Source: Eledone cirrhosa (Eukaryota). From it: DNA of 64,000 bases. Shown here piece after piece: positions 28,709 through 60,408 of this stretch. How positions within the stretch are numbered: position 1 is the first letter of the stretch; every line of letters begins with the position of its first letter. Location: assembly GCA_964016885.1 (NCBI GenBank), contig OZ024753.1, positions 34,844,001-34,908,000 on the forward strand. The letters run 5' to 3'. A program made the translations under genes and the position numbers. Under the pieces are notes generated by a model. The model was not told the origin of the DNA. It worked only from the letters and a program-made list of their open reading frames with translations, and did not search any database.

Positions 28709-29004
28709 GTAATTGATCAAAAGAACATCTATTTTATTAATACTTATATTTTAATATTAATAACTCCTGAAAATTATTTTCCGTTGAGTGCTTCCAATCT
28801 ACTGTAAAACTCAATCTTTGACATAATCATCGAATATTGTTTAACAACTTAATACTTATATATATATATATATATATATATATAAATTTATTTGTATTTA
28901 AGTTAGATGTTGTTGTTGTTGTTGATGTTGTTGTTGTTGATGTTGTTGTATATATGTTGCTTTTAAAACTAGAAAATAACCAAAGTTACACTTTATAGGT
29001 TATA

Positions 29005-29485
29005 TAATGTATGTGTGAGGGCATGTGCGTATATATATGTGTGTGTGTATGTATAGGTGCGTGGGCGTGTATGTTTATATATATATATGTATGTGTATGT
29101 GCATACATCTGTGTGTGTGAGTAAATATTTGTATGTATACATGTGTCTGTGCATGTACATGTGTGTGTGTGTGTGTGTGTGTGTGTACATGTATATGTAT
29201 GTACATATGTGTGTGCTTGTGTGTGTTTGCATGTGTCTGCACATGTATATATATATATACATTTGTACGTTCCTCCTCTGTGTGTGTTTGTATGTACATG
29301 TGTGTGTGTGCGTGCATGTGATTGTGTATGTGTACATACATATTTGTGTGTGTGTGCGTGTGTATGTGTGTACATGTGTGCGTGTACATGTGTGTGTGTG
29401 CGTGCGTGTACATGTGTGTGTGTGTACATGTGTGTGTGTGTGTGCGTATGTGTGTGTGTGTGTGTGTGTGTGTGTGTGAGCGTGT
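29005..29485. repeat. (TG)n-rich microsatellite complex
   Basis: Direct inspection. Confidence 0.9.
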
Positions 29486-30506
29486 ATAATGATTCTCTTT
29501 TATTTTGTTTTAACAAGTCCTGCCAACAAGCTTGTGCTCTCAGACAACACATAATTAGAAGGTATAAGAGGACTAATTGGATGGTTTGCCTAGCTTTTGA
29601 TTAGTAGAAAATGTACACACCTCATGTAGCAATGTAGTGGATGTTTGAAAATTTGTATAAAAAAAACACCCAGAAAACCAACAAAAAAACTCCAGAAAAC
29701 AAAGAAATAAAGAGAATATATAAAGGAAAGAAAAGGAAAGAGAGAGGTGTTGAGTGGAGAAAGTAAATGCGCTTTCAACAGGGTAAAGAGAGATGGGAAG
29801 AAGATATAGAGAATGAAAGAACGAAGAAAGATGTTTGTGTGAGAAGGATAATACAGCAGGAGAAAGAAAAAGGAAAAAAAAAAGAGAGAGAGAGAGAAAT
29901 AGAAAGAAAAAAAAGAGAAATATAAAATGTATGTTCATTTACTTATCACTGACTGAACAAAAATGGTGAATCAAAGATTTTAGAGAGAAGAAAAAAATGT
30001 AAGAGAGAGTTTCCGGTTTTGTTATTAAAAAAAAAAATATTGAAAAAAAAGGATTAATTTTGATAAAAATAACATATTTCATACTAAGCTCCATGAATGA
30101 TAAAATGGGTTGGCAGCATTGGTAGAGTTTCAGATAACACGCTTTGCAACATAGTTACATCCCTTTACATTCTGAGTTCAAATCCCACCGAGGTTAACTT
30201 TGCCTTTCATCCTTGTAGGGGGTATCACCCTTCTTAAGACCATCTCTGATTCTAAGATACAAAAGTCTCTTGTTTTAAGCCCTTTAATATTAACCCGCCT
30301 CTATGAACCCTTTTGGTACCAACCCAATTAAAACCAAGTCTGGTTCTATGAAACAAAACCATCCATTTTAAAGAGTTCCTATTTAAACAACAATTCTCCA
30401 GCATAAGTTTATATAAGAGCCATATGTTAAGTTACTGTCTTAATAATGAAATAATTAATAATTTTTGTAAATCCCTTAAAATTCTTCATTAATGAATTGA
30501 AATATA

Positions 30507-30700
30507 GGCGGTGGGGTGGATTGGCAGTATTGGTAGAGGGTTGGACGCCATGCTTTCCAGCATAGTTACGTCCCTTTACGATCTGAGTTCAAATCCTGCC
30601 GAGGTTTACTTTGCCTTTCATCCTTACGGGGTTCGATAAAATAAAGCACCAGTAATGCACTGGGTAATTGCTGGCCTTGTGCCTAAAGTAGAAACAATTA
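30507..30700 (+). mobile_element. SINE family A inserted within a MITE P2 remnant
   Basis: Full-length; flanked by an approximate direct repeat ATTAATGAATTGAAAT. Confidence 0.8.
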
Positions 30701-31685
30701 ATGAATTGAAATGGAGTGTATTTCATTAGAAATATGGTCAAGAGAGGACTAGTGTTCAAATTAAAATTAAAATCTTGGATAGAAATTTCATTTTTAAATG
30801 ACAGAGAACATTTGGTTTTAGTTATTAAATATTCTTTTATTATTAAGTTAATTATTTCCCTAAACCTCTCGTATCTATTGATTAGGTGATATAATATCTC
30901 TTGCCTCAAGTGGGACTACCCCCGTCCAAACCCATGAGAGCGTGGAACACGGACGTTAAACGTTGATGATGATGATGATGATGATGAATATTCTTGGTAG
31001 AAATATGGTCACAAAAATATTAAGTATTCATATTTAAATTAGATTCTTCCATTATAAGTTTATCTAAGGGACATTTTAAGTTATTTTCTAAACACTGGCA
31101 TAATAATAAAAACATTTCTTCATTATTTTCTCAATCAATTAAATTAAGGGGTTGGTGTTAGGAAGGGTATCCAGTCATAGAAACCATGCTGAAAACTTTG
31201 GTAGTGTATTTCATGAAAATATTTATTAATTATGGGTTGTTGATAAACATAACAAACCTCTAAATTCTTTATATAATAGTAATATAATAGTCTTAAGATG
31301 GTGTTACTTTTAACTATTTTGCTTTTTAATATCAGGGTTGTTCCTATTGTCTTTTGGGGAAGAACTAGTAATTTAGATAATGCTTGTTCTCATGATTAAG
31401 AATAAAATTTTGATTCATTAAAATTTCTTTTTTTTTTTTTTTTACATCAAGTAGGCTTATGCCCTACTTTACTATTATGTTTTCATGTAGATGTCGTCTC
31501 TGAGTACCTCACCACGACCAGTCATAATTTTCTTTGGGTGGCAAAACAAACTGCTGCATTTTTTGGTACTTAAAGAGTGCCAAGAAACGTACTAGTATGA
31601 TATTTGGCATGCAAAAAGTTAAATATAGGTTCAGACAATGTAAATTTCATCAAAATAACTTTTATTATATCTTTGACAATGTCAG

Positions 31686-31900
31686 GGCAGTGGATTGGCA
31701 GAATCAGTAGAGAGTCGGACACCATGCTTTGCAGCATAGAGTTACGGTCTTTTACGTTCTGAGTTCAAATCCCGCCAAGGTTAACTTTTCCTTTCAACCT
31801 TATGGAGTCGATAAAATAAAGTACCAGTAACGTACCGGAGTCCATTTAATCGACTTTCCTCTCCCCCCAAATTACTGGCCTTGTGCCTATACTAGAAATC
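31686..31900 (+). mobile_element. SINE family A (long variant)
   Basis: Flanked by direct repeat ATTATATCTTTGACAATGT (probable TSD). Confidence 0.8.
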
Positions 31901-32283
31901 ATTATATCTTTGACAATGTTTTTTGAAAAATGCCAAAATTAACAGGTAATCCCAGACAGTAGCAGTAGAATACCAAAAACAACACAGGCACTGCTATATT
32001 TCTAATGAAAGACATTGCTTGTGATTTACAATTAATTTTGATAGAAGGATGATAATGAATATGATAATCATCATCATCAGCATCATTTTATATTCACTTT
32101 CTGTGCTCACATGGGTTAGATCAATTATTACAGACCAACCCTTCTAAACAAGTCAGAAGACCAAATCTCATTTGTATGTTCCAATTTTTAGCATGGTTTC
32201 TAAGACTGGATGCCCTTCCTATTCCGGGTGCATTTTATTATGGCCACTAGCACTAGAGAGATTGTCATATCACCATTCTCAGT

Positions 32284-32469
32284 TGTGGATTGGCAGTATC
32301 GGGAGAGGGTCGGACGCCATGCTTTCCAGCATAGTTACGTCCCTTTACGATCTGAGTTCAAATCCCGCCGAGGTTGACTTTACCTTTCATCCTTACGGGG
32401 TCGATAAAATAAAGTACCAGTAATGCACTGGATAATTGCTGGCCTTGTGCCTAAAAGTAGAAACAATTA
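32284..32469 (+). mobile_element. SINE family A
   Basis: Full-length match. Confidence 0.8.
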
Positions 32470-59096: not shown

Positions 59097-59510
59097 AAGG
59101 CTACGTTGGTATGGTCACGTGATGCGCATGAAGGACGATAGCTGTATAACAAAGTGCAGGGCAATAAAGATAGACGGTAGCCACGGAATAGGCAGACCCA
59201 GAAAAACCTGGGACGAGCTGATAAACTCCGACCTCACACACTTACACCTCACCAAGACAATGTCACTGGACCGAGACCTTTAGCGGTACTCAGTAATAGA
59301 GAAGACCCGCCTTACCTAAATACAAAGTAAAACCTACTACAGTCAGTAGGCATCTCTAACAAAATACACCCCCGTCCCACCACCCCCACCCCATCCACAC
59401 CGCCCCCTTATATGTAAAGTTATGTTGGTGCCACACCATCCAGGCCGAAACAAATGAGATCGTGTAGGTGTCACGACAAAAAAACACACAGTCCACGCTG
59501 TAATGTGGCT
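59097..59510 (+). mobile_element. RTE LINE 3' fragment (family of 1491/47316)
   Basis: Near-identical sequence; in-frame stop at ~59281. Confidence 0.8.
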
Positions 59511-59760
59511 AATTCTGGACTAGTCCAGCTCAGCCGTCGGAGTCCTACTCGTTCCTATTACCCATTCTACTACCCTAAGTATTGAGTACTTTGGTGCGTT
59601 ATGGTCCACCTGGTTCCTTACCACATTTCCTTCGTTATATATATATATATGTGTGTGTGTGTGTGTGTGTGTAGATATAAATGCACACACATTCTGGACT
59701 AGTCCAGAATTAGCCGTCGAAACGGCTTGAGCTCAGCCGTCGAGGTCTTACTTGTTCCTA
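59511..59760 (+). mobile_element. Two PLE-like 3' remnants with a partial hammerhead
   Basis: GAAA-CGGCT-TGAGCTC-AGCCG-TC (5-bp stem III, GUC site); palindromic ATTCTGGACTAGTCCAGAAT. Confidence 0.6.
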
Positions 59761-59770
59761 TATATATATA

Positions 59771-59943
59771 TGGTGGCTGCCAACTCACCTTCGAGTACGG
59801 CCACTACTTTATATCCATGTAGGAGAACCCCTACCGATGCGCTGAACGAGTGTGACTTTTTAGTCTAGCCAGCGACTTGAAAACTCTGGTACAAACACTA
59901 CACTTGTGACAATTATTGACACATAGTGCTGGGCCCATGGTAC
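59771..59943 (-). mobile_element. Family D retroposon, 5'-truncated copy 3
   Basis: Matches 41276-~41448. Confidence 0.8.
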
Positions 59944-59944
59944 A

Positions 59945-60087
59945 TATCTATCTATCTAAGGCGGGTAAAATTCCCAAGATCCATGGACGAGTTCTCTCCA
60001 GCGGTCTCTGTCCCTCATTATCGCTGCCATGTCCTGCATCTCCAACAGACCAGTGTCTGTCCTTAGGGCATCAACATACGTTAACCT
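59945..60087 (-). mobile_element. RTE-like LINE 3' tip (family of 56580)
   Basis: Near-identical to 56580-56717. Confidence 0.75.
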
Positions 60088-60216
60088 GATGGTACATATA
60101 TACATACATATATATAAACAGACTCAGAGATACATACACACAGCCTCAGAGATATACACACACACACACACATATATATATATATGCATATATATATATA
60201 CATATGTGTGTGTGTG

Positions 60217-60408
60217 AGTCTGGGGTTATATCGGGGGTAACCATAATAAGTAAGGTACTCAATACATTAGTAGAGTGTATACAAAAAATTTAATATAGAA
60301 ATGGCTTCTATAGGACTAGAACTGTTTCATTGAAAGGAAATCATGATGGTTTCCTTCTAATGAAACAGTTCTAGTCTTGTAGAAGCCATTTCTATATTAA
60401 ATTTGTTA
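60217..60408. mobile_element. Short palindromic PLE-like remnant (GAAA-stem III-GTC only) with tail on the left
   Basis: Arms ~60285-60340 / ~60349-60403; tail has ACTC-TAC/GTA-TT-GAGT hairpin on minus. Confidence 0.6.

Follow-up and report, generated by a model that had tools for sequence, protein, structure and literature searches.

A duplicated, covarying hairpin beside the insertion ends of Hydra-clade Penelope-like elements in Eledone cirrhosa

An initial annotation of a 64,000-nt stretch of the Eledone cirrhosa genome (GenBank assembly GCA_964016885.1, contig OZ024753.1, positions 34,844,001 to 34,908,000; hereafter the window, in whose own coordinates positions are given) had drawn attention to a bulged hairpin at the start of the 3' tail of several repeats. 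These repeats are 5'-truncated ends of Penelope-like elements (PLEs) of the Hydra clade, and full-length elements have two copies of the hairpin, both placed after the hammerhead ribozyme and before the start codon. The motif has the form RCTC-stem-loop-stem-T(T/C/A)-GAGY-RC. Its first copy (HP1) is the hairpin of the initial annotation; the second (HP2) follows 43-91 nt downstream and as a rule does not appear in inserted copies. The duplicated hairpin covaries, and its outer stem, bulge and 3' flank are conserved in sequence. Either copy has genomic 3' ends 3-7 nt 5' of it, and almost every inverted insertion combines one end of each type. Judging from sequence comparison, the hairpin is probably an RNA signal bound by the reverse transcriptase (RT), with two copies in the leader of a tandem transcript, at the junction of the pseudo-long terminal repeat (pLTR) and the open reading frame (ORF), that would set the RT start upstream.

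Hydra-clade elements and their leader

An ORF link could be made for four window families, and each of them is a Hydra-clade PLE, so these families, first taken to be unrelated, are related. At locus L008 the sequence continues from the tail into the ORF, and at L078 and L093 the GIY-YIG end lies upstream. Intact elements of three families came from protein searches: the ORF has 717 aa in TAC, 742 aa in B-like and, counted from the first aligned Met, 800 aa in C. Each has a single ORF for an RT with a C-terminal GIY-YIG endonuclease (EN); at L127 family C is present in tandem units. Over aligned RT segments the C protein shows ~43% identity to that of TAC and ~56% to that of B-like. Homologues of the ORFs carry PF26215 and PF01541, and when one ORF was itself scanned against Pfam no match was obtained. 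The translations contain RLRW/RIRW, SDKT, CNCxxxxxC, CxLC and CxH, and CCHH is absent. The Hydra clade was defined by an RWK motif, DKT in place of DKG, a CxCX5C linker, the lack of CCHH, and flanking CxxC and CxH motifs (Craig et al. 2021, PMC8557442). Our assignment is based on these diagnostic motifs and on similarity by eye to the consensus sequences in File S7 of that paper; our protein tree was built without named references.

The published Hydra elements and ours share these motifs, a GIY-YIG domain without CCHH, (TA)n targets, tandem and inverted structure and a tail at one end (PMC8557442). Insertion into (TA)n and the tandem and inverted arrangement with a tail were all seen in our families. 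The published elements also have a hammerhead; in ours CUGANGA..GAAA was seen in families C, B, A/E and H and at most of the metagenome loci described below, the core in the TAC family is non-canonical, and Rfam matched nothing in the window. In the Anolis PLE discussed below (PMC11167929), and here too, what appears as the tail is the beginning of the following tandem unit. In our families it is untranslated leader and measures 43-91 nt as against the 30-40 nt reported by Craig et al. In the main text of that paper the word "hairpin" does not occur and no leader motif is described.

Other identities were considered and rejected. Retrozymes lacking long terminal repeats (non-LTR retrozymes) are tandem, head-to-tail repeats, non-coding and about 170-400 nt long, with a type I hammerhead, and were excluded because the copies in the window are inverted and are the 5'-truncated ends of elements with an ORF. 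A Helitron or Helentron terminal hairpin was dropped once the ORFs had identified PLEs. A splice-site reading, with CAG as acceptor and GTATTG or GTGAGT as donor, was rejected because CAG is not conserved (TAC, TGC, CCC and others stand in its place) and because an upstream GGTATGT can pair, by eye, with hammerhead loop II. This GGTATGT is conserved ~45 nt upstream of the core and can pair with GCATACC or GTACC in stem-loop II (28663, 40371 and 53794; L001-L030); the pairing is likely to be a pseudoknot, and the sequence not a splice donor. In the TAC family, the most abundant (L211 leader; 58097-58222 and 59500-59635), 5' truncation and inversion points cluster 60-70 nt upstream of HP1, inside hammerhead stem-loop II.

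The two-hairpin junction was predicted from family C and then found in the TAC, B-like and A/E (L263) families, so that the hairpin, proposed earlier as a cis-acting element, does belong to autonomous, ORF-bearing PLEs. In family C junctions HP2 reads GCTC..T(T)GAGC-GC and follows the point where tails end. A generic HP2 pattern had 3,139 matches genome-wide and its control 12; a guessed pattern for the TAC junction, with 2 matches, was uninformative. When 20 differing HP2-like variants were taken from 100 listed places, 12 had the start of a Hydra ORF just downstream, among them the family of the 28763 and 53904 copies. HP1 and HP2 are 43-91 nt apart in 25 metagenome loci, where at least the 43-nt value reflects a mis-assigned start, and the distance from HP2 to the start codon is fairly constant at 34-82 nt.

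Two further features of the leaders may be recorded. Families at L259, L266 and L268 (also L254 and L261), L253 and L260 have a hammerhead, a long-looped HP1 and an HP2, with no Hydra ORF within about 300 nt; they are possibly non-autonomous derivatives or have long leaders. In the C-family leader at L127 an extra helix of ~10 bp joins the sequence after HP1 to that after HP2 and encloses the tail end. It has a G-U variant between subfamilies, and a similar pairing seems to exist in the B-like leader.

Conservation and covariation across lineages

Metagenome contigs were scanned with a Hydra protein alignment, and 76 loci were chosen regardless of the motif, from the best 80 of 216 confirmed. 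Among the 32 with leaders of at least 200 nt, a loose scan found two hairpins in 19, one in 10 and none in 3. The same motif appeared singly in 12 and doubly in none of 544 ORF windows, doubly in none of 3,200 shuffles, and singly in 1 of the 32 antisense leaders. The twin hairpin occurs in Hydra-clade PLEs across many marine animals, and lineages whose proteins share 37-70% identity each have two copies of the motif per element. Among six published consensus sequences compared by eye in File S7 of PMC8557442, the motif is clear in three (a sea cucumber with both hairpins before the ATG, and a second sea cucumber and a coral with one after the hammerhead), degenerate in two (a second coral and a copepod) and not seen in one (octopus).

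The wider sample modifies the sequence first given for the motif. ACTC..GAGT is the usual HP1 form of this genome, and the general form is GCTC..GAGC followed by AC-T-N-T. The first T of the bulge is kept as had been noted, and an invariant TT is not: 70 distinct metagenome hairpins have TT in 48 cases, TC in 12 and TA in 10. In the 3' flank of the same hairpins T occupies position +1 in 67 and position +3 in 68. T-A is enriched at -6/-5 before both hairpins in the metagenome set.

The first inner pair, which the scan did not impose, is Watson-Crick in all 70 hairpins (C-G 46, T-A 24). For HP1 the first three inner pairs are Watson-Crick in 39/39, 34/39 and 27/37 sequences, where the null expectations are 19.9, 13.6 and 11.2. 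On a quick tree of 40 proteins the first HP1 pair switches between T-A and C-G six times, four of these forced by strong branches. Since the variable loops could not be aligned by MAFFT, covariation was counted on end-anchored stems and on equal-length subsets. Two such sets of 11 sequences each (19 sequences taken out of the 70 metagenome hairpins, 3 out of the window) were 97% and 100% paired, values reached by 0 of 500 shuffles, and RNAalifold agrees. The hairpin covaries, and compensatory change in the inner stem, as first noticed, holds across lineages; the copy at 28763, with a T.C mismatch, does not exemplify it. A covariance model from 11 sequences recovered six of the eight sites of the initial annotation and is a weak search tool, because only two of these score below E 0.05. 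Local folding of 25 leaders gave median stem probabilities of 0.90 and 0.70 for the two hairpins. Long-range pairing of HP1 with HP2 was also considered and is not favoured, with a probability of 0.003 in the same folding.

Insertion ends and the role of the hairpin

The hairpin had been placed at the start of tails, and this positional tie extends beyond the window: among 134 3' ends flanked by (TA)n in three families, 131 have HP1 or HP2 no more than 12 nt to their 3' side (C 33/33, TAC 59/62, B-like 39/39). The geometry differs from that first implied. The hairpin does stand in the tail, and HP1 marks the end of the tail-less arm, the tail's own end being marked by HP2. The last matching base is at -7/-4 and -6 in C, at -5 and -3 in TAC and at -5 and -3 in B-like, ranges that converge near -6 to -7 when TA microhomology is allowed for. 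Four of four further ends in two smaller reference families fit, as do 11 of 14 informative ends on metagenome contigs, which lie 0-8 nt 5' of a hairpin (23 rows, from which 3 hammerhead matches across families and 6 (TA)n artefacts were removed). Both ends could be classed in 31 inverted insertions. Of these, 29 pair an HP1 end with an HP2 end, in the other 2 both are HP2 ends, and HP1 ends never occur together; the mixed pairs exceed the two thirds expected if loci must contain a tail (p = 5e-4). The longer arm can be either one. Several full-length C copies (L113, L129, L133 and L108), each a single unit in length, start almost exactly at the tail-end site; a circular template might account for this, as might stalling where a hairpin is occupied.

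We suggest that the RT-EN protein binds the hairpin and would begin reverse transcription ~6-7 nt upstream, where U-A in the RNA could base-pair with the (TA)n target after its cleavage. An RNA with two hairpins would allow both cut target ends to be primed, one per site; the two cDNAs would face each other and join, giving inverted arms, and the tail would be the stretch of RNA between the two start sites, containing HP1. The most speculative step is that a single protein dimer would place one subunit on each hairpin. Programmed twin priming in this full form, a dimeric RT-EN on two hairpins that uses a ~6-nt ruler to prime both (TA)n ends from one RNA, is put forward tentatively, as a reasonable possibility that may well prove wrong.

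The nearest parallel is the Poseidon PLE of Anolis, in which RT starts inside the RNA at two sites, one on either side of the tail, both strands of the target undergo extension and a dimer has been predicted (Frangieh et al. 2024, PMC11167929). The two systems share a pair of start sites at the pLTR-ORF junction that bound the tail. The Anolis sites lie inside the ORF, at an AC-rich stem-loop and without target homology, and in that study, which mapped both sites, no RNA determinant is named and no repeated RNA signal identified (PMC11167929). Unlike these, the sites described here are in the 5' leader, each is followed by a conserved hairpin, and there is TA microhomology.

A number of observations weigh against a hairpin that positions the RT. 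Eight of the 20 HP2-like variants have no Hydra ORF within about 300 nt (three of them have a long-looped HP1 upstream and two have half a motif), and searches for a full-length junction or HP2 in the H family, and for an HP2-bearing full-length junction in the 54814 family, found none. The second and third inner pairs of HP2 are paired in only about half of the sequences (18/34 and 13/27), and its inner stem is often of 1-2 pairs. Isolated hairpins are weak (-2 to -5 kcal/mol), with only one decayed copy beyond z -2, and neither hairpin is in the centroid structure of the globally folded TAC leader. Counts of G-U and A-C mispairs, 5 and 4, distinguish neither strand nor RNA from DNA. The Anolis element starts without target homology, and the RNA in Fig. 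S1 of PMC11167929 shows no such motif by eye. As for the ends, many loci were picked by the HP1 pattern, which enriches tail-bearing ends, the end signatures behind the 31 classed insertions were tuned by family, and TA microhomology blurs the exact start points.

The wobble counts leave room for a hairpin that acts in single-stranded DNA. The GIY-YIG endonuclease would recognise it in the cDNA or an unwound intermediate and cut at a TA ~6 nt 5', resolving a longer-than-unit intermediate, and the TA at -6/-5 suits a TA-preferring nuclease as well. Craig et al. ascribed the tail to endonuclease-mediated resolution (PMC8557442), the Penelope EN has been reported to need tail sequence for plasmid cleavage (as cited in PMC11167929), and GIY-YIG nucleases of the Ssn type recognise single-stranded DNA hairpins by sequence and structure (PMC11893778). 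However, the only reconstituted PLE makes both of its ends from RT start sites on RNA (PMC11167929), and independent cutting at either site would not obviously yield 29 mixed pairs among 31. The 5' ends, moreover, show only weak clustering at these sites (8/54, 8/91 and 1/57 at the HP1 site, in a biased sample that we left unused as evidence). We consider this explanation unlikely.

Alternatively, the hairpin could be a processing or termination signal that makes two RNA 3' ends, each closely upstream of one of its copies, to be followed by ordinary end-primed reverse transcription. The short fixed distance from end to hairpin, the conserved single-stranded 3' flank and the self-cleaving ribozyme already nearby would all fit. 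Nearly every insertion would then demand two differently processed RNAs to account for the mixed pairs, and a cut in the leader would also sever the mRNA of the element itself; internal initiation on unprocessed RNA is what the Anolis protein shows (PMC11167929). Such processing seems rather improbable. Still more doubtful is a role of the hairpins in translation, in assembly of the ribonucleoprotein in cis or as a promoter, with ends set by nearby TA and the correlation incidental: the fairly constant 34-82 nt from HP2 to the start codon and the TA-richness of leaders speak for it, yet of the many TA sites in the leaders the two next to the hairpins account for 131 of 134 ends, and hairpin spacing (43-91 nt) follows tail length across families. 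That the motif reflects only chance or the shared ancestry of related repeats, as the homology of the CAG..CTG families of the window over their entire length might suggest, is very improbable, being already contradicted by the two-hairpin leader counts and the covariation tests, by a motif present twice per element at 37-70% protein identity with repeated double-sided changes, and by its presence in published coral and sea cucumber consensus sequences.

An RT-binding hairpin would have several relatives in function. In L2/CR1-type LINEs (long interspersed nuclear elements) and the short interspersed nuclear elements that depend on them, a short bulged or looped hairpin at the 3' end is recognised in cis by the retrotransposon RT. 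The LINE stem-loops are single, lie 5' of the start site and are copied, whereas the Hydra hairpin would lie 3' of its start site, is duplicated and would not be copied by its own RT. The hepadnaviral epsilon is a bulged hairpin that positions the RT and templates a protein-primed start within the bulge. Telomerase, whose RTs are the sister group of PLEs, is anchored on RNA outside the template, uses short primer-template pairing and copies a short template repeatedly. In general outline, the likeness of the Hydra hairpin to epsilon and telomerase lies in the RT-positioning role. Cis-acting RT signals as such are already known, and what is unusual here is the duplicated geometry 3' of the proposed start sites. 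Our literature searches, which did not reach Repbase and Dfam annotations or older Penelope papers, found no published description of the motif, and the twin RNA hairpin of Hydra-clade PLEs is apparently undescribed so far.

Two open questions about PLEs are how internal starts are chosen and why one-sided tails and inverted arms accompany their insertions. A short duplicated hairpin that covaries, and from whose position both ends can be predicted in many lineages, bears directly on them. If twin priming is correct, one duplicated RNA element would explain both the inverted arm and the one-sided tail, and a portable signal of ~30 nt would set the RT start inside an RNA. If the hairpin acts as a ruler, it could be used to program RT start sites in engineered RNAs. 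The motif also serves as a nucleotide-level marker for the ends of Hydra PLEs; this genome has more than 60,000 exact matches, many of them in small palindromes resembling miniature inverted-repeat transposable elements (MITEs), which can be assigned by the motif.

Copies in the window and neighbouring elements

The host genome is AT-rich and of 3.0 Gb, and the window is rich in (TA)n runs and small palindromes. The eight hairpins first reported are all present (Table 1), those near 46891 and 53904, described as variants, being decayed copies. After masking of tandem repeats (37,320 nt remaining), the window has 6 motif matches with two or more inner pairs, where 200 shuffles gave 0.55 (maximum 3); enrichment is slight in a loose scan (8 against 4.4). 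Genome-wide, the CAG..CTG form has 4,536 exact matches and the TAC..GTA form 58,996, against 2 and 33 for reversed-pattern controls, counts that represent repeat copies and not independent events. TAC and CAG tails have no mutual blastn match, and an Rfam search of the window gave no match at the gathering score. In most of 60 loci the layout is (TA)n, an optional inverted arm, the hammerhead core, ~65 nt, the hairpin, 40-70 nt and (TA)n. The window copies confirm the placement originally described, between hammerhead core and tail and just past the end of the short arm.

Table 1. Hairpin copies and Hydra-clade insertions in the window
Feature	Position	Strand	Remarks
HP1, GCTC-TGT..ACA-TT-GAGC	2387..2408	-	Follows long arm of palindrome 2429-4012
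HP1	4723..4745	-	Left arm of palindrome 4684-5018
HP1, GCTC-TGT..ACA-TA-GAGC-AC	4957..4979	+	Right arm of palindrome 4684-5018
Small inverted TAC-family insertion	9011..9110		Tail arm truncated within HP1, 3' half alone retained
Inverted Hydra-PLE insertion	28457..28856	+	Short arm, long arm with hammerhead core 28663-28693, HP1 and tail, in (TA)n
HP1, decayed	28763..28791	+	T.C mismatch in inner stem (CTG..CCG)
Inverted Hydra-PLE insertion, B-like group	40222..40636	-	Hammerhead core 40371-40409; related full-length families exist
HP1, ACTC-CAG-TAAA-CTG-TT-GAGT-GC	40282..40303	-	
Inverted Hydra-PLE insertion, C group	42490..42820	+	Tail end is CTACAT
HP1, ACTC-CAG..CTG-TT-GAGT-GC	42736..42762	+	
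HP1, C group	46889..46915	-	Decayed bulge (TG)
HP1, decayed	53904..53931	+	In inverted insertion 53668-53990, hammerhead core 53794-53836
HP1, GCTC-TGTA-GAT-TACA-TA-GAGC-AC	54814..54836	+	Tail ~40 nt to (TA)n; ORF link tests none positive
HP1, TAC family	58151..58176	+	In inverted insertion 58097-58222; full-length family known
HP1, TAC family	59564..59589	+	
HP1, H family	60255..60276	-	Neither ORF nor HP2 found for H family

Four full copies of HP1 (the first three in Table 1 and that at 54814) and a half copy near 9054-9087 on the minus strand were absent from the initial annotation. In palindrome 2429-4012 the other arm ends 4 nt short of HP1, with the tail cut off. Palindrome 4684-5018 has a tail on both arms, and its family is outside the count of 31 insertions. 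The family of the insertion at 28457 is tied to HP2 and a Hydra ORF through L263. The short arm of the insertion at 40222 stops ~7 nt 5' of HP1, and the CTACAT that ends the tail of that at 42490 stands 6 nt before HP2 in full-length relatives.

The twin hairpin appears to be specific to the Hydra clade, as judged from few controls. A young PLE family outside this clade (43683-44843; L061-L066) has a hammerhead, an ORF of ~1,200 aa and many copies at 98-99% identity. The element at 44196-44738 shows two clusters of 3' ends 58 nt apart (18 and 6 of 33 ends), inside the start of the ORF, and no motif was found in its leader. It was rejected as a partner element, being of a different lineage in which only the EN aligns, and the covariance-model matches in its loci are other elements in the flanks. 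The motif is also absent from the PLE-like palindromes at 317-697 and 9142-9541. In the young PLE different small hairpins follow each end, and it may have a paired signal of its own.

Other repeats in the window include a 10-kb satellite of 36/43-bp units with almost no CpG (15070-25376), a retrotransposon fragment on the minus strand with an RTE-like reading and C-terminal C2H2 fingers (45208-46364), and another on the plus strand with a zf-RVT domain (7913-8674). Palindromic repeats with other termini, at 26692-27200, 14848-15060, 38284-38499, 62172-62396 and 53552-53651, are probably DNA-transposon MITEs.

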